Positions 39,101-56,490 of a DNA stretch of 64,000 nt are shown here, one piece after another. The stretch is from Glycera tridactyla. Taxonomy: Eukaryota. A program made the translations under genes and the position numbers. Each line of letters starts with the position of its first letter. Position 1 is the stretch's first letter. The notes beneath the pieces are model-generated. The model had not been told where the DNA came from and made no database searches. It was given only the letters and a program-made list of their open reading frames with translations. The DNA is taken from assembly GCA_965644265.1 (NCBI GenBank), contig OZ286468.1, forward strand, positions 50,592,001-50,656,000, given 5' to 3'.

Positions 39101-40414
39101 TCCCGCCAGAGGGGCGATCACTATCTGCAACTCTGCTTACCTATCCAGTTTCGCGGCCACGTAATAGACGTACATCACGATAGTCTAATGGGATGCCATA
39201 GAGGCGCCCTGAAACTGTTAATGAGCCTACGAAATAAGTATTATTGGCCAAAGATGACTGCTGATGTGAAAGCATACGTACAGAGTTGTTTGACATGTGG
39301 AAGGGGTAAGAGACCTTATAATTCGTATAAGGCCCCATTGGAATTGCGCCAAATATTTCCTATTTGGTATCATGTCCATATGGACGTCCTGTCCCTTCCA
39401 GCAGACCCCTATACAGGACATACTAAATTGCTGGTGATGATAGACTCATTTTCATCTTATGTAAAATTGGCGGCGGTACCAAATGAGAAAGCAGAAACGT
39501 TAGCAAAGGCGTTCTTCAGAGAGTGGATATGTCGGCATGGTTGCCCAGTCATATTAACGACAGATAGGCACCAAAGTTTCAGAAGTATTCTTATGAAGAC
39601 CTTAGCATCACTCTTAGGATACAAGCGCATTTTTACGAGTAGTCATAGGCCTGAATCTAACGCAAAAGTGGAGAGAGTGAATAGTTCGATATTAGCAATG
39701 ATGAGAATGTTGGTTAGCAAGACCAAAGAATGGGTTCAATATCTGCCAGTAGTTAGGTTGAACCTAAACACTTCAACCTCTCAGACTTCAGGGTATACCC
39801 CTATGTTTTTGGCTACAGGGGTGGATACCTCGGTTGGGGAATATTGTCATTTGAGAGATCCAGAGATGTTGTCGGATAAGGATCAAGAGGTTCTGGAAGC
39901 TTTGTTACCAGAACTTACTTATCATCGAGAAATGGCCCGAAAGAACATAGAAATTTCTGCAAAGAGATATAAGGAGGTATATGAGAAACGATACCAAGTG
40001 GGTCAGATGCCTTTCAAAATCGGTGATCTTGTCTGGATGAAAACAGCCAGACCAGCGGGACAAGCAGTAGGAAAAACAGATAACCAACGTTTGGGCCCAT
40101 ATCGTATCACCGATACTCTTGGTGGGGTTTTGTATAAATTACAAGACTCACACACAAATATGTCTCTGGGGTCTCTTATACATGGCAATAAATTATCGTT
40201 GTTCCGAGACGAAGACGATAGCAGAATAAGGAACCTTTCTAAGGAACCTCCTGCGAATCCTAACCCTAGAGTATATGCAGATCCGGCCAAAAGAAATAGA
40301 ACCCAGGTCAAACACATAGCAAAAACTGTCTCCAAACCAGCGAATGTACCTAGAGTGCGCTTAACCGGGCCGGTTACAAGAAGACAAGCTGCGTTGAGGA
40401 ATATCAAGATATAA
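36191..40414 (+). CDS. pol: pol polyprotein (protease, RT, RNase H, integrase)
   Basis: Open from the gag TGA. PR: VDTGA. RT: YRACIDYRALN, LDMLSGYYQI, LPFGL, FLDD. RH: TDAS, KEAF, TTDN, DALSR. IN: HHCC (HHDSLMGCH...CLTC), HMDV...TTD-35-E, GPY. Confidence 0.97.
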   Translation, partial: WSTFTPPKTKTGDPSISFNDDVRLSLNLDGSFIRVMHNGMVARAPVDTGATASLISKNQWEQFNLESYLPIDGDKFLKLADASGKQIPILGQVEIPFEIAGREISVSLMVAEGLPVSMILGMEFLKNHRAIIDLEQGIVSFEGVPLIATIMPHIPIDRAIDVISTDHITIPPHTFMTVRLQVANKYWLSALFSSGYTGESDVESVQGFVVPSNNADIPVNLQLDPCLVTISKSGSLVVKVANSGDKPLEVKPSMTQARLTLDDDIEIIEASNVGGEVMAIMQMITSSQQTTVTVPPNYFNEEAFKENVLGLELRGDRVFEEIDWHEILDLSDCNKEQRRQLVDLLNANRDIFATSTEQLGKVTCVEHEINLEPDAKIVRQRPYRLSPEKQESLDKQIQELLAAKVIVESDSSWQSPVVMVKKKNHAPDGSVLYRACIDYRALNAMTQKEAGYFVMPTFDDIHESIARQAPRWMSSLDMLSGYYQIAMEKNSQDCTTFTTGKGSYKFLRLPFGLSLAPFTYSRAMSAALSRLGQTYVWNFLDDVFVASRTFKDHLVHLARVFNQFRQYGFTVHPRKCDFARKKLKFLGHIWTEKGLEPDPEKVKAIQKFPAPTNVTEVRRWLGLTGYYRKFIKNYAEIAEPITNLTRKDTPFLWDRKCQAAMDTLKTELLKNAVLHYPRLDREFFLTTDASKHSVSSILSQKDDDDVLRPVAFFSKKLNEQQRVWDINSKEAFSLILSIRLYRHLLGRQKINVTTDNLTARYLKNLRTSSAPKLLRWALEIQGLNIEIKHAPGKTIEAVDALSRIPEEKSIKTNYTKRDLGTPLDETIVMFVRTIGGDMPRAKTISQIANETRHTSDHRDAYTKQEVETSQKEAIVADENDNAQQDGESDEEVHAFLGPRLLEEQLKQFKADLHLVRDMQQESPDFKEMYYYLKFGTLPKESEKMKVVLRDHQHYILGAEDLLYRIFSTPGSRQRGDHYLQLCLPIQFRGHVIDVHHDSLMGCHRGALKLLMSLRNKYYWPKMTADVKAYVQSCLTCGRGKRPYNSYKAPLELRQIFPIWYHVHMDVLSLPADPYTGHTKLLVMIDSFSSYVKLAAVPNEKAETLAKAFFREWICRHGCPVILTTDRHQSFRSILMKTLASLLGYKRIFTSSHRPESNAKVERVNSSILAMMRMLVSKTKEWVQYLPVVRLNLNTSTSQTSGYTPMFLATGVDTSVGEYCHLRDPEMLSDKDQEVLEALLPELTYHREMARKNIEISAKRYKEVYEKRYQVGQMPFKIGDLVWMKTARPAGQAVGKTDNQRLGPYRITDTLGGVLYKLQDSHTNMSLGSLIHGNKLSLFRDEDDSRIRNLSKEPPANPNPRVYADPAKRNRTQVKHIAKTVSKPANVPRVRLTGPVTRRQAALRNIKI

Positions 40415-41141
40415 GTTAGTAGCGCCTCTGGAGGACCGTTGTATATATGCATATATATATATATCTATACATATATATATATGGCCAAGAATTTGCTTGA
40501 TATTCATACATGTCTCAATGTAGTCCCTAAACCCTAATTTGAGCTCATACCATCCCCAGGTAAGGGAATACTAATAGATGTATATAAATAACTGTGAAAT
40601 CGGATACTATGTATATGTAGACCATCGTACGATTCACAGTAACCTAGGGATGAGTGGTGTCCGCCATAAGGACATGTTAGGTGATAGCGATGACCAGAAG
40701 TCGAATGTAAGAGCTTTTACGGGTGTCTCTTGACATCTTCTTACATTTATGACTTGGCCACGGATGTGGGCCGGAATCAGTACGATGGGGATCGTGAAAG
40801 CCAACTGGATTCTCCGATGAGCTATTTTGTATTTATAATGTGAATGTATGTAAGGTACCTTAAAAATTATCTGTGATAAAAATCGACTAAGCGTTGGTCG
40901 TAGGCTCTGCCATCTGGAGTCTTAGGCTACTGAGCAAAAGATGTGACCGTAAACTCACCTTGTAGGGTGCTGCATGGTGAAACATCGATATCGTTCATGT
41001 ATCTCCAGAATCCATGATGCGTCTGGGGAGAGGCTCGTGGAAATATAAGGGAGTCCCGTGATTATAGGGAGGATAAGGTAGATAGATCCTTCTAGTATAT
41101 ACAAATATGTACACATACGACCCACGTAGTCCACAAATCCT

Positions 41142-41819
41142 TTACTCCTCAGATGGGGGTATCTCTCCTTCTTCTAGGCTGGGGAGAGATATGTTAGAGT
41201 CATCATCTTCCATTAGTAGAGGCATTGGAGGATCATGTCCCCAGGCTGGTGGGGGGAAGTTGGGCGAATGTGGCAAGGAATCGATACTAGGAGCAGGTGA
41301 CATATGTCCAGGGGACGGAGTATCTAGCATTGGAGGAGGATCGATGGTGATATCTGAAAAGGGTGATCCTTCTTCGGATCTCGGTTGAGCTGCTCTAGAA
41401 GAGGCAACGGATAACCTTCGAGGTCTGACGGTAATGGAAGACCTGGAGGGAGGAGTATCCGTTCTCCCGGGAGCGGGAGGCATCTCAGTCGAAGGTATCT
41501 CAGACAGTAGAGATATCACTCTTTGCAGATCTCTATGTTCCTCATAACGAAGAGGCACATCAAGAATCCTAGTGGTCGTTAGCAAGTGGTCTCCCAGTGA
41601 CCATAGAGTTGAGTGAATGGTATGATGAGGAGGCTGGGACTGATTATAAATGCTATGTCCCATAGGTGGTGCCCCTGATCCTTGTTGATTTAGGATCGCG
41701 ATGGTGATATCTGTCTCTGCCAGTACATCAATGCGGGAGATGCCATGATGGGTATCAAGATCCTGTAGGATGTAAACCAGACGATCCAGAATCGATTCCC
41801 GCGGTATCGCTTGCTCCAT
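41142..41819 (-). CDS. Antisense accessory ORF, 225 aa, unknown function
   Basis: ATG-initiated (ACTATGG) and confined to the pol-env spacer. The N-half looks helical; the C-half is Pro/Ser-rich and acidic. Confidence 0.6.
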   Translation of the reverse strand: MEQAIPRESILDRLVYILQDLDTHHGISRIDVLAETDITIAILNQQGSGAPPMGHSIYNQSQPPHHTIHSTLWSLGDHLLTTTRILDVPLRYEEHRDLQRVISLLSEIPSTEMPPAPGRTDTPPSRSSITVRPRRLSVASSRAAQPRSEEGSPFSDITIDPPPMLDTPSPGHMSPAPSIDSLPHSPNFPPPAWGHDPPMPLLMEDDDSNISLPSLEEGEIPPSEE

Positions 41820-42060
41820 AGTAAGGTTCCGTGAGAAAAGGGTGGTGTTTGTGTACGATAACTGTAGAAGAAATCGTGGACCTCAGCAGTTGGAATCTGG
41901 GATAAACTTCGAGTCAGACGGTTTCGGCCGGATCTCAGCTTATCTGAAAGGAGGATAGTAGAAACATATAGGAATGAGAGGGGCTAATAGTAAGGTTGTA
42001 ATGGTCATAGTCAGAGTATAAAAACCAGTTCGCCATTTTTGGTGTTGCAGAAGCCGAGAG

Positions 42061-45000
42061 ATGGCGCTGGTTTGGATAGTCACCCTTATGGCCCTATCCA
42101 ATTTGGATATTTCGAATATCAAAATGGAAGTTGATGGGGTTCTAGATACAGTAAGTAGACCTAATTATGGTGTGAGTTTTCAACCTTTGAAAACCTTATA
42201 TCCAGCTTCTTCTAGTTGGACACATATCTTTCGAGTAGATATACCTCCTGAAGTTAGCAGACAGCTATTCAGAGATGTAGAAACGACATGCTCGGACCAA
42301 CACTGTACTGATAACCACTCTTTAGATAGATTTCTAAGAAGATTTCAGCGCCAAATGGTAAGAGATGCGAACAAAGTTCGAACCGCCATTTTGGACCTTA
42401 CTTCTCAGAATCTGACTAACGATAATAGTAGGAATAAGCGTGAAGTCACAGCTTCGTATGTGAACTGGAGTAGCTATGGGCGTTATACTCAGACCTATCA
42501 GGGTTATGCAGTCAACTATCATGCGTGTATGAAAAAGAATATAAATGATATCGATGAAGATATCATAACTCCTGGCACTCAAAAACGTCTGGTCTGTTCC
42601 AGACGAGCTGCCAGAGATGCATGTGAAAATAATAGACCTGATTGTATAAAGGAATTTGATAGAAAGTGTCCAGATCCACAATGTTCGTCCTTAATGGACA
42701 AGTGGGGACAGGGGAAACGCACCAGACGCTCTGTCCAGGATAGGAAAGCCCAACGAGCCCCAGAACCACCAATTCTGGGAAATATCACCAAAAAGGACTT
42801 ATTTGAGGTCAAAAATATTTTGGATCATAAATTAGCCCAATATAACCATTATTTAGAATTAGCGGTACAAGTAGATGTACAACTGGGTGAAATGAGTGAA
42901 ATGATTCAAGAGTACTTACCTATAGTGAAGAGTAATGACAGGGTGAAGAGATGGAATCCGTTTGCTTGGATAGGGAAACACGTGTTCGGACTGTCTACCA
43001 ACGAGGATGTTGAGAGACTGGCTAGGGTGGTGAAGTTTGCTACGGACCAGCAACTCACAGAGGCAAGGCGTTTCACTAAATTCCAAAGTGAAACTGCTTC
43101 ATTTATGGATGTTTTATCCCAACGATTTACCAACGTGGCAGGGACCATTTCAGCACTGCAAACGGAGTTGCAGGGACAGCTGCAGGACCTGTCCCATCAC
43201 GTGGATGACCGCCTCTGGAGGGTGATGCAGTACAGCATTAGTTCCAGTTCAGTGCTTGCAAGCATGATAGAAAAAATGCAAACACTGAGTCCCCAGATCG
43301 ACCACCTAATGTCAGCAGTAAATGATTTAGTACAAGGAAAGTTAAGTCCTTATCTAGTGAACCATACAGTCCTGACAGATACTATCTCGATCCTGCAAGA
43401 GCAAATGAGACGAGACTATCCATATTTTCATCTCACGGAGTTATCTCCACAGTTTTATTATCGATATGGTCGAGTGAATTATTTCCGGACCAATGAGGAA
43501 TATTTGATGGTATCTTTAGATTTTCCATTGTCAGCATTGACAAAGGACTTTAGGCTGTATTCAGTGACCATCCACAATACTCCCATTACTGATGATTCTA
43601 CTCAGACTAGTCGTCTAAAAACCCCTGTCGAATACTTTGGAGTATCTGATGATAGTATGAATTACATTGAAATGACTCATAAAGAGTTAGCTAGGTGTGA
43701 TGATACGACTGCCTTCAGATGCTCATCATCTATGAAAATATTTGATATGGACAAACCAACCTGTATGGCAGCCATTTTTCAAGATGATTCCAGTTTAGTA
43801 AAGGAACTATGTGGTTTCAGATTTGAGAAAACTGAGCCTGTAGTAGACTTGGTAGATGTTGGAAACGGTGAGGTGTTGGTACATAACGCTGAGAGTATCT
43901 TTCAACATTGTGGGGCGGAGTTGCCCCGGCAACGAGAAGGATGCGTATACTGCCAAATGGAATTACCATGCGGTTGTACGATTCATATATCTAATAAGAT
44001 CTCAGCAGCAGCCTTACCGGCTCGTATAAATAACTGTGTGAGGAAATCATCTGGGCTTACTATCGTACATCCAATCAATCTTGCTGCCTTATCACATATT
44101 TATGATTTAAAGAATATTGAAGAGGTGAATGGCGAGACCCTGTATAGTGAGAAGTGGCTACCGAAATTACCAGAAATCAAAGTAAGTAAGGACTTTGAAT
44201 TGAATTTGAATCGAGATTACAATTATTCAATGCAATTGGCCTCTGTGATGAAACGGGCTAAGGAAGGGCTGGATGTTGATCCTATCAAGCAAGTTGCCGC
44301 TAGTACGTGGGATCTGGATTCAGCTGATGAGTTCTTCACACTTTCGAATGTGTTAGGATTGCTCAGTATTCTGGTAGCCATTGCCTCCATGGGTCTGGCC
44401 ATTTACACAAGATGGTCATATCGTCTGCTAGAAAAGACGATGAGTGCATATACGTTAGCCGGTGTGTTACAACCTACAACTGTAGATGGGCTGGAGGACC
44501 TCCCTAGGGACGTCTATGAACGTCTATTAGGACGGGCCATTCCAACCACTTCAAAAAGTAGGATCCCTCATATTGATGGTTTCCAAGTAGATACCTTTGC
44601 TCAGGACATGTGTTACGAAGGTAAGCATGTCGGGGTAGTAGGTGTATTGGCGCTTCTGGCCGTGGTGGGACTATTGGTCATAATAGGCTATTTAGCGTAC
44701 ACGATGTATGCTCACCGCTGCCGGACAAGAAGTAAGCTGATCATAGAGTTAGGAAACCTAGTAGAATACCAGGATATAACTATCATGAAACTTCCTGGAT
44801 CCATGTCAAATTATCATTTGATGGGACTAGGTGTCCCGGGGCCTTATCAGGTCAAGGACTTCCGATGCAGGTCATATTTGACTGCCTCATGGAGAGGTTT
44901 GATTGTAGGGAACAGAATGGGTAATACACCTTTACCCATGCCTGAACAATTGAGACTACTTCCATGGGAGGCTCTGAAAGTCAAACGTATTCTACAAGGT

Positions 45001-45279
45001 CGCTTTACTGCTGTATTTAAGATTGAGATGGGATGTAAGTTCTATATCATTCCAAGAATCTGCCAACCGGATTGTGACGGTTGGGCATGTAAGGGGATAT
45101 ACAACCCAGAGATAACCCCTAATATACTATACCCTGCTATGGACCAGACCCCTAAGAATGCTATTGATAGTGCAAACATTCCTCTACTAGCCTCAGCTCC
45201 TGGAAATGGGATTGACAAATATGAGTTGCAAAACGATGGTAGGAAAGTGAATTCTCAAAGTGAGATCACTAGAATGTAA
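42061..45279 (+). CDS. env: env-like class I fusion glycoprotein (baculovirus F/errantivirus Env-like), 1072 aa
   Basis: Hydrophobic N-terminus. RVKR followed by fusion-peptide-like WNPFAWIGKHVFGLSTNED. Heptad segment, GKLSPYLV motif, Cys-rich ectodomain and N-glycosylation sequons. TM segments at aa ~764-782 and ~857-883. Confidence 0.88.
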   Translation: MALVWIVTLMALSNLDISNIKMEVDGVLDTVSRPNYGVSFQPLKTLYPASSSWTHIFRVDIPPEVSRQLFRDVETTCSDQHCTDNHSLDRFLRRFQRQMVRDANKVRTAILDLTSQNLTNDNSRNKREVTASYVNWSSYGRYTQTYQGYAVNYHACMKKNINDIDEDIITPGTQKRLVCSRRAARDACENNRPDCIKEFDRKCPDPQCSSLMDKWGQGKRTRRSVQDRKAQRAPEPPILGNITKKDLFEVKNILDHKLAQYNHYLELAVQVDVQLGEMSEMIQEYLPIVKSNDRVKRWNPFAWIGKHVFGLSTNEDVERLARVVKFATDQQLTEARRFTKFQSETASFMDVLSQRFTNVAGTISALQTELQGQLQDLSHHVDDRLWRVMQYSISSSSVLASMIEKMQTLSPQIDHLMSAVNDLVQGKLSPYLVNHTVLTDTISILQEQMRRDYPYFHLTELSPQFYYRYGRVNYFRTNEEYLMVSLDFPLSALTKDFRLYSVTIHNTPITDDSTQTSRLKTPVEYFGVSDDSMNYIEMTHKELARCDDTTAFRCSSSMKIFDMDKPTCMAAIFQDDSSLVKELCGFRFEKTEPVVDLVDVGNGEVLVHNAESIFQHCGAELPRQREGCVYCQMELPCGCTIHISNKISAAALPARINNCVRKSSGLTIVHPINLAALSHIYDLKNIEEVNGETLYSEKWLPKLPEIKVSKDFELNLNRDYNYSMQLASVMKRAKEGLDVDPIKQVAASTWDLDSADEFFTLSNVLGLLSILVAIASMGLAIYTRWSYRLLEKTMSAYTLAGVLQPTTVDGLEDLPRDVYERLLGRAIPTTSKSRIPHIDGFQVDTFAQDMCYEGKHVGVVGVLALLAVVGLLVIIGYLAYTMYAHRCRTRSKLIIELGNLVEYQDITIMKLPGSMSNYHLMGLGVPGPYQVKDFRCRSYLTASWRGLIVGNRMGNTPLPMPEQLRLLPWEALKVKRILQGRFTAVFKIEMGCKFYIIPRICQPDCDGWACKGIYNPEITPNILYPAMDQTPKNAIDSANIPLLASAPGNGIDKYELQNDGRKVNSQSEITRM

Positions 45280-47128
45280 TAGCGACTCACAAAACGTAAT
45301 ACGATTATACTTATGTCTCTTCTTTAAGTAATCCCGTCTCAGGAACTCTTATAGTTCGCAATAGAACCAATCTTGAGACCATGCGTAAGTGGGGAGACCT
45401 TATGAACGATGCAGATGATTGTTGACTCAGAATAAGAATATTCGACCTGTCTTCTTAGACTATGTCACCAAGGCCATGTACCCGACAATAATGGCGGAGC
45501 TTCGTATGTATGAGTGAGTCAGGGAGCCTTGCGTATTTTTGGCGGGAAAGTTTGAATGGGGAAACCAGCAGTATCAGTTATACGGAGCCCTGTTGTAAGC
45601 TACACCCCAGGACTTGATTTGAAGTTAGGTCATAAAGACCGTGGCTGTACTACTGATTCCCGTATTTGTGGCGAGAAAGGTGTATGGTACGATTGTGTGC
45701 GCAAATGGGAAGGATGTCCTTACCGCAATATGTCTTTTTCGACTTAACGTTTGTAGCACCCTATCAACCCTATTGTACCGAGGGAAATTTTTGATAGGGT
45801 ACTACATTGTAGTGAGGATTGATGTTATATTGTATTAGGGATGTGTTAGATATAGGTATCTTCTGGGTCTTTTATAAAATTGTTTTGAATCTATTTTTGC
45901 TATAAAAACTGTGAGGTGATACAAAGTGATAGACCTGTTGGTTTCATGATGTTTTCTTGGTGTGTACGGTTATTAACTGGTATGTTCATTTGCTTGAGTT
46001 CCAGGGACAGATGATGGACTGTATGTCAGGAGAACTACGATTCGGTCCCTGGACCTCGCAAATGGACGTGCTGGTGGTGCATATCGGGGTGACACATGGA
46101 TATTGGATACCAAAAATTTAGGATATCACTGTATCACCAGGAGATAAGAGCAGTGGGATAGTTCACCCTAGCTTAGCTGAGCAGAGACTAGTAGATAGGG
46201 AATCATGGGGAACTATTCCGGACGATGTATATATACTGCCTCGATGATTCTTGTATCGCGATACCTTGTCTGTATGAAACCCAGCCTAGGAGAGGCTGAA
46301 GATGGTGAACTCTAATGCAATCGCCATGAAAAACACTTGACTTTGACTGAATGGTCGGAATCTGACTATCAGTATGAATCATGGGTTTCCATGTGGGACC
46401 CCGGAGGAGATGATGTGTTGTATTGAGTCATTGTTGCTTAATTTCCCTGGACGGGTGTATGAACACATGCTAGGGGCATGGGTGTCTAATGGACACGCCT
46501 ATGGGCGTGAAGTGTAGACATAAACCGGTGGAAAGGACATGTTTATGAGAGATGTTGGAAATGGACCGTGTCGTCATAAAAAGGGGGCGTGGTCGACTTG
46601 TGACCTGTCTTCATTGTACTTGCCTGACGTGGCGATGCAGTTGATGTCTTGATTTGATGTAGTAAATGTTGTGATTTCTCTTATCGGTACGATTATCTTT
46701 CACTCGCTTTTTGTCTCTCTCTCTATTTCTGCGGTCTTTCTATTATTCTTGTTTCTACTTGGAAGGCCATTGGCATCTGTGTCACCTATCCTAACAAAAA
46801 CCCAGTTTGCGGTTTGATAACATTTCGATTACGTTGAGGTTGATATGCATGTTAGGGATGAATGGAGCTGTAGCCGGATACGCGATTCCTCGAGACTGCC
46901 AATCTTTTGGTTATTTCGTATCTAGTCTCTTAAATATGTATTTTGACCACACTATCGTTATGTCGATTGGAGGAAATCATATTTCTTTGGTTTTGATAGA
47001 GACGCAGAGCGTCTTCGAGATGTATATCTCATTTATGCCATGGGAAACCGACTGGAACGAAAAACAATCGCAGTTGAGGAATAACGCATCCCAGTGAGGG
47101 AATTAGGCGTTACTAATTCCAAAACCGC

Positions 47129-47729
47129 TCACGAGATGGCGCGACAGTTGAAAGGTCAACGTCAGGTCAACTCTGTGAAACCAGCATATAGTCATTTCAA
47201 TCGCAATTAAAAACTAGTTAGCGAGTCATATGAGAAACATAGGTACAAGATAGAGTAACCAAAATGCGTAGTTTTTCATGAAGAATACGTCGACTATGAT
47301 GAAACCCAGAACTGACGATGCTGAGTGTAGGGAAAAATCAGGATAGTGAAAAATCATTTTTGGGCATACGACCGGGGATAGGCTTGGAGTATCATAGTAT
47401 GAAGGTGGAGATTAAGCAGAGAAGGGTCATACATTCTGACCATGTATCATACTCCGGGCTAGAGATGCGTGTCAATGATTGCCATACACAATGAGTGTAC
47501 TGCACTCGTTTCTGGTGGCATTCTCCTCATCAATCTCTTCCATTAGTTCGGAGAATTGATGCGCCGGTGAAACCACCTTCTCTTCTTCCTCCTCCTTCTT
47601 CCTCCTTCTTCTCCTGGCCGGTTTTTACCGGCCAAATAAATCAAAAGAAACATGCAACCAAAAACCAAGCAATATCCTGTAAACCAAAGTTAGGCACGCC
47701 TAGTTCTGGGAAACCCCGCTAGATGGCGA
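47129..47729 (+). promoter_or_regulatory. Two CTCF-like motifs in the element's 3' region
   Basis: CCGCTAGATGGCGA at 47716-47729 is a close fit to the CTCF core. TCACGAGATGGCGC at 47129-47142 is a weaker fit. Confidence 0.4.
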
Positions 47730-48881
47730 ATAGATCTACGACGGCCATTTTTGTAGAATTCTCTGAAGATAGACTTTTAGTCAAGGTATAAAGAGGAATA
47801 TTTCTGTCAAAAATGGGCCGATTACTTTGAAACAAATATTAAAATTTGACATTTCGAAAGGGGAATCAGAAGAAATGAAGTAATAAGTATATTCTCTCTA
47901 AGGATCACCGAAAATACTTAGAATCGAGAATTTCCGGTGGATTGTCAAAACCCCAAATAGACGAAGGCTGAGTCTTATAAGGGTTGGAGAGGAAAGCAAC
48001 GGAGGCATACTTCCTGGGTATCAACCTCTGTAGTTTGCACAAGGGAGGAACCACCATGCTGGGGGGGATCCAGATTCCTTTCAGGTTGGTGGGGACCTTT
48101 CTTCACTACGGTACGGTTTGATGCTGACTCAGAGAGTGCTGGTGTCACAGCCTTGGAGACTCCTGGCTACCTGGTTGAACGTAGTTCGATTGGGTGGTGC
48201 ACAGGCTGACTCCTGGGTGTCTTTTTTGTAAAAAGGACAGTGCTTACCAGCGACTCCTGAAATTCAGTCCTTCGTCCACAGATCCCTGCTTTCCTCTTGC
48301 TTCCTTTCCCCCTCCTTCCTCTCCCCGGCCGATTTTTATCGGCCAAATAATCAATGAAAAATGCTCTAAGAGAGGGAGACCCATCGAGTCTCCCTCATAA
48401 GGCACTATCGGCAGCGGCAGAGCTGAATGGTATCAGTTCCGAATTCGCACACGGGGTGGCGTTGCGATTGGAGTCGATCTCGCCAAGTGACCTAGTTCTT
48501 CTGTACCAAACCGACTGGCATAATGGCTTTGCAATGTATAACTTCTTAAATCCGCAAGCCGGTCAGACGATTCCTGTATGAAAACTCGATAATAGTTGTG
48601 GTTGATGATTTTTGTATGTTGTTTGGATTGTTTGAGACCTTCAATCGCCAAAAATGGTGCAAGAAGTTGGGGGACCGGTAGTGCATGTCCCCGGCAATGG
48701 GTTTATAACCTATGCCTATGAAGGTTGAAGAGGGTTCCGGACTGGTCATACTTGTTTTACCAGTATCACTCTGTTTCATGAGAGTTGGATGGATGTTCAC
48801 CGTGGAAGTGTCGGTGAATGTCTCGTTCAGATTTACGAGAAACAGAGTGATACTCAACCCCTGGTTGGTTTTTACCAACCA
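47615..48881. other. Three homologous tetraloop hairpins
   Basis: TGGCCGGT-TTTT-ACCGGCCA (47615-47634), GGCCGAT-TTTT-ATCGGCC (48327-48344), TGGTTGGT-TTTT-ACCAACCA (48862-48881). Confidence 0.75.
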
Positions 48882-49563
48882 AAATGGCCAAAATAAATGC
48901 CTGGTAAATGTGGAGGAGACTTTCACCGACACTTCCACGCCAAGGCATCTAATGGTCTTAAGGGGGACAAAGAACCAAAAATGGAACTGTGTTATATCAT
49001 GTATGTAATAAGTTGTGCGAGCTTTGTTGGTTATTTTCGATGCGAAATGTCAAAAGGTTACGTTCGGCCTTGTCTGGATGAAGACCTGATTCGCCAGGCA
49101 AGAGCGGGATGAAAGCCAGAGACATATCTAGTTGGTATTAGAATTGTACAATACGAGATGTGTGAAGAAATAAGTAGATGCCGGTCTCCACTATGGAGGC
49201 GCGGACGTGTACGAAAGCATTCTCGAACTCATGCTGCGACTGACAGAGACGGCCGCTAGTAACAACCGGTCGAGCTATTTAGCGCAAGTAGCGCGAGAAA
49301 TGAGGGAAGCCAGTGGAAGCCGTTGGGCGCGAAATTCGAAAGTCGGATTGGGAGACAATAACTCCTCGTGGTGACCCTGCTTCACTAGCCATTTGGTTCG
49401 GTCAGGGGCGCTCAGTAAGTCTGCGACTAGTCAGAAATAACATCATTTTTCGAGGACCTCTCTATACGATTGGATCCACTTTTAATGACTGGTTGTAGAT
49501 GGCTGGACGTCTTTGGCTGGATTGGCTGGATGGGACCTGGAAGCTACGAGGACGTTAGCTTCT

Positions 49564-49575
49564 AAAGAAGAGATG
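49564..49575 (+). promoter_or_regulatory. Polypurine tract
   Basis: AAAGAAGAGATG lies immediately upstream of the 3' LTR. Confidence 0.75.
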
Positions 49576-50376
49576 TATATCTCAAATCGATTATATTAAC
49601 TATAACTGAACTCGTGAAAGTCACATCTGTGTCGCACGAGTAAGCCATTTTATGACCCCATAAATTAGGGCGCTTGACGCCTCGGGCTATAAAAATGGAA
49701 TGAAGGACAGATAATCTGATCCAGGGGATAAGAAGCCCCGTCTCCTGTATTAGCCATGAGCCATTAACTTTTACTGCCCCTCGCTCTTGGGATTACTCAC
49801 GGCCATTACTCTGAGTAATGGGACCCAAGAAGCGAGCCACTTGGATTGACCCTCGCCTTAAGGCAAAGATATCTTAATGGAAAATTCTCATGAAAGACAT
49901 GAATGTCAGATAGCACTGAGTTATGAGGGGTGAGCTAGTGCGAACCCCGCTTTTCTAGATCCATGTGCATCATAAAAATACCATAAAATAACCATAAAGT
50001 GCATGAGCGTGTAATCCCATGGTAATGACTTGTGAGCCTGAAACATATAAATACGTGGGAGAAGGAAGCACCGTCAGACCATTCCTTGAGCTGGGTCCAC
50101 GCTGGTCGAGTGTGCACTTCATGGGCTGACGGACTTCTTTCCCCACAGTATTACATCGTAGTATTTATACTATGTCTGCCTGATGTATACTGGGGAATAA
50201 ATGTTAAACTGGAACTCCACGTCGTTGACTTATTTGTGGCAACCCCTGCTACTGGTCACAACGAGAGAAGGGATCCCACCATCTCACACTGACATTGTAA
50301 AGCCAAGCGACATCACGCAGAAGGAACGACATCTTCAAGCGACATCCCTCCTATAGTCGAATGAATCTTTGATATA
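49576..50376 (+). repeat. 3' LTR
   Basis: Direct repeat of the 5' LTR (offset 16454). AATAAA at 50196-50201. Confidence 0.95.
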
Positions 50377-50429
50377 TTGTACATATGTTTTTCCTGTCAC
50401 ACAAATGAAGTTACAGTCTCAAAGTTTCA

Positions 50430-52097: not shown

Positions 52098-52446
52098 TCA
52101 TACAGCATCAAAAACAAAACTGGAGAAAGTTTCTAGTCAATACCCAAAGTCAGGCAGCAACAACAAAACATTTGGAATATTTTAGGTCATACAGCAGCAA
52201 CAACAAAACATGGGGAATATTTCTAGTCAACACCCAAGGTCATACAGCAGCAAAATTAAAACATTGAGTATATTTCCATTCAACACCCAAGGTCATACTG
52301 CAGCAAAATCAAAACATTGAGTATATTTCCAGTCAACACCCAAGGTCATACTGCAGCAAAATTAAAACATTGAGTATATTTCTAGTCAACACCCAAGGTC
52401 ATACAATAGCAACAACAAAACATTATGAATATTTCTATTCAACATC
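52098..52446. repeat. Tandem array, ~53-bp unit, about 6 copies
   Basis: The unit is approximately TTTCTAGTCAACACCCAAGGTCATACAGCAGCAAAATTAAAACATTGAGTATA. Confidence 0.9.
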
Positions 52447-54849
52447 CATCGCCATCGTCATCACTCTGTTCTTCATTTTCTTTGGTTTCTTCCTCCACCA
52501 TCACTAACACCAGCATCATCCACATCATTGGTAAAGGTCAAGATGATTAGTGTTGTTTTATCATCTTTGCTTCCATTACCCGTGACTCTATATACCCCAT
52601 TTCCTACTCTATACTGACTACTAGGCCATAGCATCTCCTATGCAAGGGAGATCATGGGCAATTTATCTAAAGCCATTTCATCTCTACATTAGATGGCGTG
52701 GCTAGGAAGAGAGGATCATCACAAAAGACGGAATTGCCTCTGCCAAAGGTCAAGGACATTGTGTGCTCCAATGAATTGCCAATGAACTTAACTCAACTTA
52801 TGTATCAAAATATACACTCCTGCAGACCATCGTGATCTTCATTCCTCCCTTCCAGACTGCTCTCCCAGCTTTTTCATCTGTCTGACCTTCATGTATATTC
52901 CGTACATTGAGATTCTCAAGCAGCAACGACGTACAGGGCAACTGTGAATAAGTATAATGAAGAAAAAGCCTGTTTCGATTATTGGTGTGATTGAATGTGT
53001 GGGTGAATTTCTGTACATCCTGGAACCCCTTGTATGCACAGCCTGGGTGGCTTTATTGCCAAGTATGATTCAACAATGCCTCCACCGTGAGACAGTAGTC
53101 CCAAACCATTATTACTTCGTGGAGAGGCCAGTGCATTAGTGAGTGAAGTAGGAGTCATGATGGGCAAGCCTGTGATGAGTGTTTGCTCATTACATGGCCA
53201 ATATACCTGCAGCCAGCAACTGCTGATCTACAGCCCAGATCTACAGCTCCCATTCAGTGAGTCTACTGGTTAGAGTGACTCCTAGTGGTATCTCATGAAT
53301 ACAACAGGCCAAATCGTGAAATTTCACAAGCCATGACGATGATCTCGCAGTGAATCAGATGATCAGATAATTTATCCTGCACTGGCCATGCAATAATGTT
53401 TGTACTTTATCATGCACACATGGTGATGATAATGATCTATCAAGTTGGATATTTCGTATCGATTGCAGGAAGGCACTTGGAATTATATTCCATATTGACC
53501 CAGATTCCCATGGTAGTGATATTGTCGGAAAGTGGGAGTCAACTCACCGCAAGTACCACCTTGTGCCAATACATTGAAATACACTTGTGGAAACATCCGA
53601 GACTAAATGCTGTTATTTTCTATACCAAAGCCTACAAAGCCTACGATACTGCAAATGCTATTCAGACAATCGGCATCTGGATTTGATCTTTGCTCTGATA
53701 TTCTTTGTCTGGTGATATTTGTATCAAAATTCGTGGAGTCTTGTAGATTTGTGTAATGTCCAGATGGCGACACCTTCACTGCTCATATAATCTAGTTTTT
53801 GGCAGGAACACGTCCCACTCTCGTGTGTCCACTTGTCGGTATTACTCATACCATCACTTAGCTAAGCTGTGTTCTAATGAACAGTTTTTCTCCAAATGAT
53901 ACGCCTAGGAAAATAAGCTTTTGCCTTCCCAGTCTAACTTGTCGAGACTTGGAATCTCTGATTAGGCTACAGGGTATTTCATTTTCGGCAGGAGATCTAA
54001 AAGGCATACTGGCCAATTGAGAGTAGTGCTCAGTGGCACACGTCTTGTGTATGTCTGAAAAAATTGACAATACCATCTGTTGAAATTTGAGTGTCCATTA
54101 TTTCCGATATGAGGGAGAGATCCTGCAAAGAAGAGTTTTTTGCAGAATGGGAGTGTTGTATGATTCTTGAAAGAAGAAGATGTCCATCTCCAGCATAGGT
54201 ATACTAACGATGTGAAATTGCGAAACGCACTCGCTAGCTTCGAGTCTAACGGACTGGAGGTGTGCAACAGTGTGCCAATTCTTGAAAGGCCCAACCCGAA
54301 TGCGATCGGTGAGGCGCTTACAAGCTGAACTCTCTGATCATATGTGCGCACGTACGCACGTGCGGGGGACACTCACTCTCACACACGCGCACGCTACTAT
54401 TGTGGCCACCGCGTGCTCCAACCAAGCGCAGTTCGCTTTTTAGACTCCATACTGCATCGCGACTTTCCCAAAGGCTGGCAACGTCCACCGGAGTGATCAA
54501 ACTCATATGTCCCACACACCCTCCGTCTTGAAAGGACGTATTTGTGAATCGTCACGCATTCGCGGCTTGTAGCTTGCATGCGTCACACAGTGTGGGTGTG
54601 GCGGTGCGGGTGTGTCTGTCTAGGTGTGGTGTGGTGTCATGGAATCGACACGCTTGCCCAGCGCCTGGAGTACGTATATGGTTATCATAAGTGTGTGTCT
54701 ATTGGAGTACGCTTTAACACAGTTGGTAACTGCGGAAAACGCCGCCTATTACAGCAAGTAAGTCATTATTCTGGTGAATATGTACCAAAGAAATGTCCCT
54801 ATCCCTCTTCTAAACATCTTCGACGAAAAAGTATTTCGAACATGGTTCT

Positions 54850-56400
54850 GCGAGTCATTCATTTGATGAATGTCCACAATGAAGACAGAGTGTTTTCAAC
54901 CAGTGTTTGTCAGTCACCATTTGATAAATCTCCACAATGAAGATCAAATGATGACTGACACTTTTCAACCAGTGTTTGTCAGTCACCATTTGATAAATCT
55001 CCACAATGAAGACAGAGTGTTTTCAACCAGCGTTTGTCAGTCATCATTGATAAATCACAATGAAGATCAAATGATGACTGACAGTTTTCAACCAGTGTTT
55101 GTCAGTCACCATTTGATAAATCTCCACAATGAAGACAGAGTGTTTTCAACCAGTGTTTGTCAGTCATCATTTAATAAATCTCCACGATGAAGACAGAGTG
55201 TTTTCAACGAGTGTTTGTCAGTCACCATTTGATAAATCTCCACAATGAAGACAGAGTGTTCTTAACCAGTGTTTGTCAGTCACCATTTGATAAATCTCCA
55301 CAATGAAGACAGAGTTTTTTTCAACCAGTGTTTGTCAGTCATCATTGATAAATCACAATGAAGATCAAAAAATGACTGACAGTTTTCAACCAGTGTTTGT
55401 TAGTCATCATTTGATAAATCTCTACAATGAAGACAGAGTGTTTTCGACCAGTGTTTGTCAGTCACTATTTTGATAAATCTCCACAATGACGACAGAGTGT
55501 TTTCGACCAGTGTTTGTCAGTTACTATTTTGATAAATCTCCACAATGAAGACCAAGTGTTTTCAACCAGTGTTTGTCAGTCACTATTTTGATAAATCTCC
55601 ACAATGAAGACAGAGTGTTTCCAACCAGTGTTTGTCAGTCATCATTTGATAAATCTCCACAATAAAGACAGAGTGTTTTCAACCAGTATTTGTCAGTCAT
55701 CATTTGATAAATCTCCACAATGAAGACAGAGTGTTTTCAACCAGTGTTTGTCAGTCATCATTTGATATATCTCCACAATATAGATCAAATGATGACTGAC
55801 GGTTTTCAATCAGTGTAGCCTGCCTTGGTGCCTCAGTGGTAGTATGCTGGGCCGGCGTGCAATGGGTCTGGGGTTCAATCCCCGATCCTACCATGAAGGA
55901 ACGTTTCACCCTTCATCTTCGCTCCTCCTTGGCAGGTGGTCTGATTCAGCCTACTCAAGTGCAGAAAATGGACCTGAAACCTCAACATTTCCATTACAAC
56001 CTGTGTTTGTCAGTCATCCATTTGATAAATCTCCACAATGAAGAGAGACTTTCAACATGTATTGTGAGTCACTCATCTGATATATTACCTAAATGAAGAG
56101 CGACATTTTTGAACCAGGATCTGTGAGTCATTCATTCGATGAACCTCCCTGATGAAGAGATGCTTTATTTAACCAGTATTTGTCAGTCATTTATTCGATG
56201 AAGAAAGAATATTTCCTCCACTTTATGTGGGTCAATCATTTGATAAATCTACAAAATGAAGATTTTTTCAACTAATGTTTGTGAGTCATTTATTTGATGA
56301 ATTTCCGCAATGAAGAGAGAGTTTTCAACCACTTTGTGTGAGTCACTCATTTTATATAATTGCACGATGAATACACACGAATTCAACGAGATGATTGTGT
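54850..56400. repeat. Tandem array, 58-bp unit (about 16 copies before the SINE and about 7 decayed copies after)
   Basis: Unit GATAAATCTCCACAATGAAGACAGAGTGTTTTCAACCAGTGTTTGTCAGTCACCATTT, contiguous with no unique spacers. Confidence 0.95.
55818..55994 (+). mobile_element. tRNA-derived SINE inserted in the 58-bp array
   Basis: A and B boxes are present. Same family as 22648-22824. Flanked by CAATCAGTGT and CAACCTGTGT, a possible TSD of the array sequence CAACCAGTGT. Confidence 0.8.
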
Positions 56401-56490
56401 CATTGGCTGGGTTTTATGCATGCAGCTGCAATGATTATACATTTCTTATATGGGAGAATCTTTGAGGATATTGTACTTTGAATATAGTTA

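Follow-up and report, generated by a model that had tools for sequence, protein, structure and literature searches.

The window, i.e., the whole stretch of 64,000 nucleotides of Glycera tridactyla DNA that was analysed, carries a 17-kb LTR retrotransposon of the Ty3/gypsy type with the gene order gag–pol–env, and a further open reading frame (ORF) on the opposite strand between pol and env. The following features of the element were recognised.

33122–33924, plus strand: 5′ LTR, 803 nt of which were aligned to the 3′ LTR with 6 mismatches; its TG start is possibly at 33109.
33925–33942, plus strand: primer-binding-site-like sequence starting with TGG, immediately 3′ of the 5′ LTR, recognised from the sequence.
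34492–36190, plus strand: gag (Pfam matches Retrotrans_gag, E 6.5e-4, and zf-CCHC, E 8e-10).
36191–40414, plus strand: pol, with the PR-RT-RNaseH-IN domain order of Ty3/gypsy elements (Pfam).
41142–41819, minus strand: antisense ORF, ATG-started, 225 aa.
42035–42050, plus strand: env splice-acceptor-like site, TGTTGCAG, 10 nt ahead of the env ATG.
42061–45279, plus strand: env, F-type-like, 1072 aa.
45280–49573, plus strand: env–LTR spacer, non-coding, 4.3 kb, common to family copies and ending in a purine tract.
49576–50378, plus strand: 3′ LTR, aligned to the 5′ LTR.

Since only 6 of the 803 aligned LTR positions are mismatched, the insertion is young. The LTRs terminate with ATATT instead of CA, the start of the 5′ LTR is offset by about 11 nt from that of the 3′ LTR, and no clear target-site duplication was found at the LTR flanks (33095–33125 and 50370–50395). 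The gag gene is broken in the window copy by an in-frame stop, which ends the frame 34492–35529, and by a frame change ahead of the zinc-knuckle part. The F-type-like assignment of env comes from its relatives: three of seven aligned env sequences matched Baculo_F (best E 1.3e-6), while the window's own env had no Baculo_F match in Pfam; no PDB match was obtained. An acceptor-like site occurs at the equivalent place ahead of env in the compared lineages and in family C (see below), as judged by eye.

The env–LTR spacer is 83–95% identical in 13 of 18 fetched copies; the five others were dropped because of low cover. No codon-phase signal, no shared ORF, and no second gene or coding exon were detected in the resulting set of 14 sequences (the window and these 13 copies). 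On the minus strand, 11 of the 13 copies have a scoring donor-like site at 45723. The least variable stretch of the spacer, 46901–47200 (diversity 0.04), contains at 47017–47031 a 15-nt exact copy of the junction between the purine tract and the 3′ LTR, the other copy being at 49570; it is possibly a second plus-strand priming site. Outside the element, the window contains tandem arrays of 53-nt units (52184–52501) and of 58/59-nt units (54789–56406).

The antisense ORF, which includes the segments SILDRLVYILQDL and LQRVISLLSEI, is separated from the pol stop (40414) by 727 nt and from the env ATG (42061) by 241 nt; as claimed in the original prediction, it overlaps neither gene. An ATG-started ORF of at least 225 codons appeared in only 2 of 2000 shuffles of the pol–env interval, which argues against a chance origin. 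At 41370, the window copy lacks 12 nt (4 codons) found in most copies of its family, giving 225 versus 229 aa.

A genome search for the antisense ORF yielded 2380 candidates, of which 150 were scored; these best-scoring rows favour intact copies. They comprised 81 members of the window's own family, designated family A (70–100% identity), and 69 members of family B (37–40%). Of the 72 family A rows that span at least 200 residues, 65 were free of internal stops. Pairwise dN/dS ratios were calculated by the Nei–Gojobori method for 46 of 50 family A loci, excluding the most decayed locus and three in which pol was not matched, and for all 20 family B loci. The antisense ORF in family A has dN 0.036, dS 0.283 and dN/dS 0.13, which is close to the ratios for the end of pol (0.15) and the start of env (0.15), while six neighbouring spacer frames range from 0.59 to 0.87. 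Codon-bootstrap intervals are 0.10–0.16 (95%) in family A and 0.14–0.27 in family B, and the ratio is steady across distance classes. In family B it amounts to 0.19 for the whole ORF and 0.05 for its first 115 codons; the C-terminal tail in family A gives 0.12, and a further six lineage groups (3–10 copies each) give 0.08–0.39. Among the six possible frames, that of the antisense ORF is the sole one free of stops. Distinct indels preserve the frame (multiples of three) in 7 of 8 cases within the ORF in family A and in 3 of 3 in family B, versus 11 of 64 and 1 of 24, respectively, in the spacer. The dN/dS near 1 and frequent stops in related copies that had been set as the refuting outcome were not seen, and the claim that this is not a shadow ORF agrees with the low ratio and the unique open frame. 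Altogether, the antisense ORF is very probably a protein-coding gene under purifying selection.

The distribution of the gene was studied at 60 further loci, 20 of them chosen by env similarity alone and 40 by ORF similarity. An antisense homologue was found at 51 of the 60 loci, in all 51 cases opposite pol and/or env. Among the 20 env-chosen loci, 11 carry a homologous antisense ORF and add five lineages, namely D, E, F, G, and H; eight belong to family C, all without an antisense ORF; and in the remaining locus the antisense ORF falls outside the fetched stretch. All 40 loci chosen by ORF similarity have it, opposite both pol and env in 34 and opposite one of them in six. The carriers thus make up at least 11 lineages of one 2.0-Gb genome (A, B, D, E, F, F2, G/G2, H, I, J/J2, and K), with pol 65–81% and env mostly 43–70% identical to the window, and this breadth, with the selection data, strongly supports the proposal of a real antisense accessory gene. 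Family C is 56% identical to the window in pol and 45% in env, and its pol–env gap is about 440 nt; no antisense ORF was found downstream of env either in the two copies read. Several family C copies have long open frames.

On an integrase tree with midpoint root (20 of 21 rows, one being too short), carriers are split from family C with a support of 100/100. The groups A+B and G+I+J are common to this tree and to the tree of the antisense ORF; the deeper forks are tentative, and long branches meet. The simplest reading, judged with one outgroup, is a single gain followed by vertical descent, the alternative being loss in family C. The gene is oriented head-to-head with env, at a distance of 200–350 nt from the env ATG where it could be placed. 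At least 150 near-identical stop-free matches in family B (all 150 scored were 92–100% identical) and more than 100 similar matches in family J represent very recent large expansions of env-bearing elements.

The antisense protein consists of two parts.

41475–41819, minus strand: alpha/beta domain of about 110 aa, defined by alignment A3 and an AlphaFold model.
41142–41474, minus strand: Pro/Ser/acidic tail, residues ~116–225, defined by composition.

Alignment A3, comprising 32 N-terminal sequences, is nearly gap-free, with 17–45% identity between lineages; D31 and D37 are invariant, and R29, G35, L43, and W73 are near-invariant. The predicted order of elements is helix 10–25, strands 27–34 and 38–44, a short helix, strands 67–75 and 78–86, and helix 95–105. 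The best AlphaFold model has pLDDT 71 and pTM 0.60 and the other four have pLDDT 48–63; an earlier model from eight sequences was poor (pLDDT 44). The amphipathic segments noted in the original prediction correspond to two helices of the predicted alpha/beta domain, but no HBZ-like zipper is present. No transmembrane or signal-like stretch was found (highest 19-mer hydropathy 0.9).

The tail is probably disordered and varies from ~20 to 335 residues among lineages, being Pro/Ser-rich and mostly acidic. The family D protein, 136 aa long, consists of the domain and a short basic end and is almost tail-less, which makes it the most suitable natural version for structural studies. Motifs in the tails of 13 lineage representatives were compared with residue shuffles; the patterns were picked post hoc and the shuffles ignore local clustering. 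Under these conditions, xL[DN]L[ST] was found in 5 of 13 tails (shuffle mean 0.21, 0 of 2000 shuffles), in the forms PLDLS in K, ALDLT in G and G2, ELDLS in H, and SLNLS in F. No enrichment is seen for the stricter PxDLS pattern (2 of 13 versus 1.4), and family A itself has no PLDLS-like motif. Adenovirus E1A and EBNA3C bind CtBP through PLDLS (PMC11209466). Basic clusters occur in 6 of 13 tails (shuffle mean 2.8, 54 of 2000 shuffles), S[SD]D[ED] in 7 of 13 (mean 0.73), and SPx[YFW][STP] in 5 of 13 (mean 0.97, 4 of 2000 shuffles). The S[SD]D[ED] sites are CK2-like, and the SPx[YFW][STP] pattern corresponds to SPxY/F motifs. PPxY is not enriched (1 of 13 versus 0.9). The Pro/Ser-rich acidic tail with PxxP motifs described originally is indeed there, but PxxP was rejected as a signal, since its frequency (12 of 13 representatives versus 11.6 in shuffles) merely follows composition.

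A single antisense protein had no relative among 5.8 billion proteins (lengths 123–394), nor did alignment A3 in a billion-protein set (lengths 62–209), and no relative was found in Pfam, PHROGs, PDB sequences, metagenome contigs, or viral contigs. A profile, A2, searched against 1.84 billion representatives produced one match, which was repetitive and spurious. Because these collections are poor in animal repeat proteins (env found one relative), such blanks say little about other animals. Weak matches to Pfam L544_NTransf were obtained for 3 of 32 members (best E 0.015). The fold search suggested originally, with AlphaFold and Foldseek, did not yield a homologue: nothing in PDB or BFVD matched the model at E ≤ 0.001. 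The VIA structural comparison gave a best Z of 3.8 (rmsd 3–5 Å), less than the background level stated for this tool. Several of its highest-ranking rows belong to the group of RsfS/Iojap/MALSU1 and minimal nucleotidyltransferase folds, but the domain lacks the catalytic motif GS-x-DxD. The RsfS lead was not upheld, with an hhalign probability of 2.8% against a shallow alignment of nine RsfS sequences and a model of moderate confidence. The antisense ORF represents a previously unnamed gene family, with no relative detected in the collections searched.

Candidate signals for an antisense transcript were located on the minus strand (a slash marks the splice boundary).

41944–41961, minus strand: conserved acceptor-like site, CCTTTCAG/AT, ~125 nt upstream of the antisense ATG.
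41862–41873, minus strand: first-proposed acceptor-like site, AG kept in 17 of 45 copies, not conserved.
40942–40972, minus strand: donor-like motif, CACCC..ACAAG/GTGAGT..ACAGTCACATC, with the exon end at 40959, 183 nt past the ORF stop.
37186–38751, minus strand: GT-AG intron, GAG/GTATGT..CTTTGTTACAG/, skipped by one contig of run X1.

The acceptor originally placed at 41862 exists in so far as TTTCTTCTACAG ends there, 43 nt upstream of the ATG, but it was rejected by conservation, since only 17 of the 45 other copies of the family retain its AG. The site at 41944 is retained by 44 of 45 family A copies, has a counterpart in 19 of 19 family B copies, and is matched in score by 11 of 300 shuffles. 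Among the lineages, the best upstream acceptor exceeds shuffles in A, B, F2, H, and part of the K copies only. In families B, D, and K, an extra ATG lies between it and the antisense start. All 46 family A and all 20 family B copies retain the AG/GT of the donor-like motif. The motif, which is partly palindromic, is recognisable in A, B, D, F, F2, G, I, J, and K, always on the strand of the ORF and mostly 450–560 nt from the end of pol. In lineages E and H, another strong donor is situated close by. A narrow donor pattern was found at 27 of 51 carrier loci versus 0 of 8 family C loci. The interval 41820–42060, which separates the ATGs of the antisense ORF and env, and its homologues contain a recurring CGATTT (ORF strand) in several lineages, tandemly repeated in lineage J; it is perhaps an internal enhancer or promoter.

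Run X1 is guessed to be RNA (share 0.11), and its contigs are unstranded and patchy. In the single X1 contig that skips 37186–38751, the CT..AC joint has a depth of 4.6, and its short side measures 27 nt. Provided that X1 is RNA, this joint shows antisense splicing over some family A copy; host-gene read-through would yield the same joint. The sites of this intron are conserved only in family A, and it is probably cryptic. X1 contigs also cover the antisense ORF, and two contigs are unspliced across the proposed acceptor (contig 41409–42030) and donor (contig 40714–41082); these two may be sense RNA or DNA. No AATAAA was found within 4 kb past the antisense ORF stop, and no spliced antisense joint from the 3′ LTR was present in the unstranded and patchy contigs of three runs.

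Several known systems resemble the element in part. HTLV-1 HBZ and related deltaretrovirus antisense proteins are likewise encoded by an antisense gene in an env-bearing retroelement. HBZ is spliced and nuclear, and its gene lies downstream of env, whereas the antisense ORF described here is upstream of env and the 3′ LTR has no strong minus-strand donor; neither did the ORF match bZIP in Pfam, an alpha/beta fold being predicted instead. The HTLV-1 antisense promoter is in the 3′ LTR, and plant GENE23 is nuclear with its own promoter (PMC7264820). Conserved antisense ORFs downstream of Ty3/gypsy pol (TRP28, GENE23), with a proposed regulatory role, are described in plant Retand, Grande, and RIRE2 and in fungal Boty (PMC11963269, PMC7264820); here, in contrast, the host is an animal and the gene lies between pol and a true env. 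No match to Transposase_28 (TRP28) was obtained in Pfam for the full ORF, nor for the 32 A3 sequences at E ≤ 1. Ancient errantiviruses (Chary and Hayashi, PMC13524379) are similar in having a Ty3/gypsy pol, LTRs, gag–pol–env, an F-type-like env, and many recent animal copies, while the carriers here differ by a fourth, antisense gene and a pol–env gap of 1.4–2.9 kb. The main text of that study does not mention antisense, accessory, opposite-strand, or small ORFs, and its supplements may list related elements; its prefilter accepted up to 1000 nt between POL and ENV outside insects, and env was also hand-annotated to 3000 nt downstream. The extra ORFs reported for rotifers are env-like or enzymatic ORF3s (PMC5408684), and an annelid survey cites, in its statement on antisense ORFs, plant work only (PMC8220671). 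The literature searches brought up no antisense gene in this position for any animal gypsy element.

Taking these data together, we tentatively favour, with somewhat less than even confidence, the reading that the accessory gene has a spliced antisense RNA of its own and that its product is a nuclear protein controlling expression of the element. The antisense transcript would enter via the acceptor at 41944, with a possible second splice at the donor at 40959. The folded domain would anchor the protein to a partner, either a nucleic acid or another protein, and the disordered tail, by means of its basic clusters, acidic CK2-like sites, SPxY/F motifs, and the PLDLS-like motif of four lineages, could recruit host transcription cofactors, e.g., CtBP. 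Such recruitment might tune LTR or env expression, as HBZ does for HTLV-1. It is more doubtful whether the clade has independently evolved the full design of a complex retrovirus, with a multi-exon antisense unit, a nuclear regulator of new fold, a CtBP-recruiting tail, and HBZ-like control of latency or escape from silencing.

One could alternatively hypothesise that the protein acts in counter-defence, for which Vif-like and VANC-like proteins are models: the domain would bind a host factor that restricts or silences (of the piRNA, RNAi, or chromatin machinery), and the tail would block it or send it for degradation. The domain has diverged between lineages (17–45% identity) far faster than pol (65–81%) or env (mostly 43–70%) while remaining constrained inside each lineage, as host conflict predicts, and carrier families are large, with the 92–100% identical, stop-free matches of family B as the example. 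Any small accessory protein could diverge fast, however, the viral proteins in BFVD gave no fold match, and the gene-less family C retains several copies with long open frames; we consider this role rather unlikely. Lower still is the probability of a Rev/Rex-like protein that binds element RNA, e.g., the 4.3-kb spacer or the ORF-side motif, and sets the balance of unspliced and env-spliced RNA or its export. The env gene seems to depend on splicing, given its acceptor-like site, a long conserved non-coding spacer is present, and the partly palindromic motif at 40942–40972 might function as a site on RNA or DNA instead of as a donor; but no arginine-rich RNA-binding motif is common to the lineages, no Rfam match was found, and family C has the env acceptor without the gene.

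A particle- or entry-associated helper acting with Env or Gag would be in line with the constant head-to-head placement relative to env, but is improbable, considering the lack of a transmembrane or signal segment, the PPxY frequency at shuffle level, and an antisense expression that uncouples the gene from the structural genes. Finally, the frame could be untranslated, a by-product of constraint on an RNA or DNA element, since reverse frame +1 also has a low dN/dS (0.24). That frame, with 9.6 stops per copy, is the expected shadow, and the protein alignment is nearly gap-free at 17–25% identity across lineages, with dS up to 1.0, which makes this explanation highly improbable.

Animal env-bearing Ty3/gypsy elements are described as simple gag–pol–env, and surveys capping the pol–env gap or reading the sense strand only would miss genes of this kind. 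The new protein family comprises at least 11 natural variants in hundreds of copies, which makes the role of antisense retroelement ORFs testable in an animal. The theme of an antisense accessory gene, otherwise that of complex retroviruses and of plant and fungal elements, thereby extends to animal env-bearing retrotransposons, and the presence throughout the clade of an antisense gene constrained like pol within families suggests a regulatory layer convergent with those of deltaretroviruses and plant Retand.
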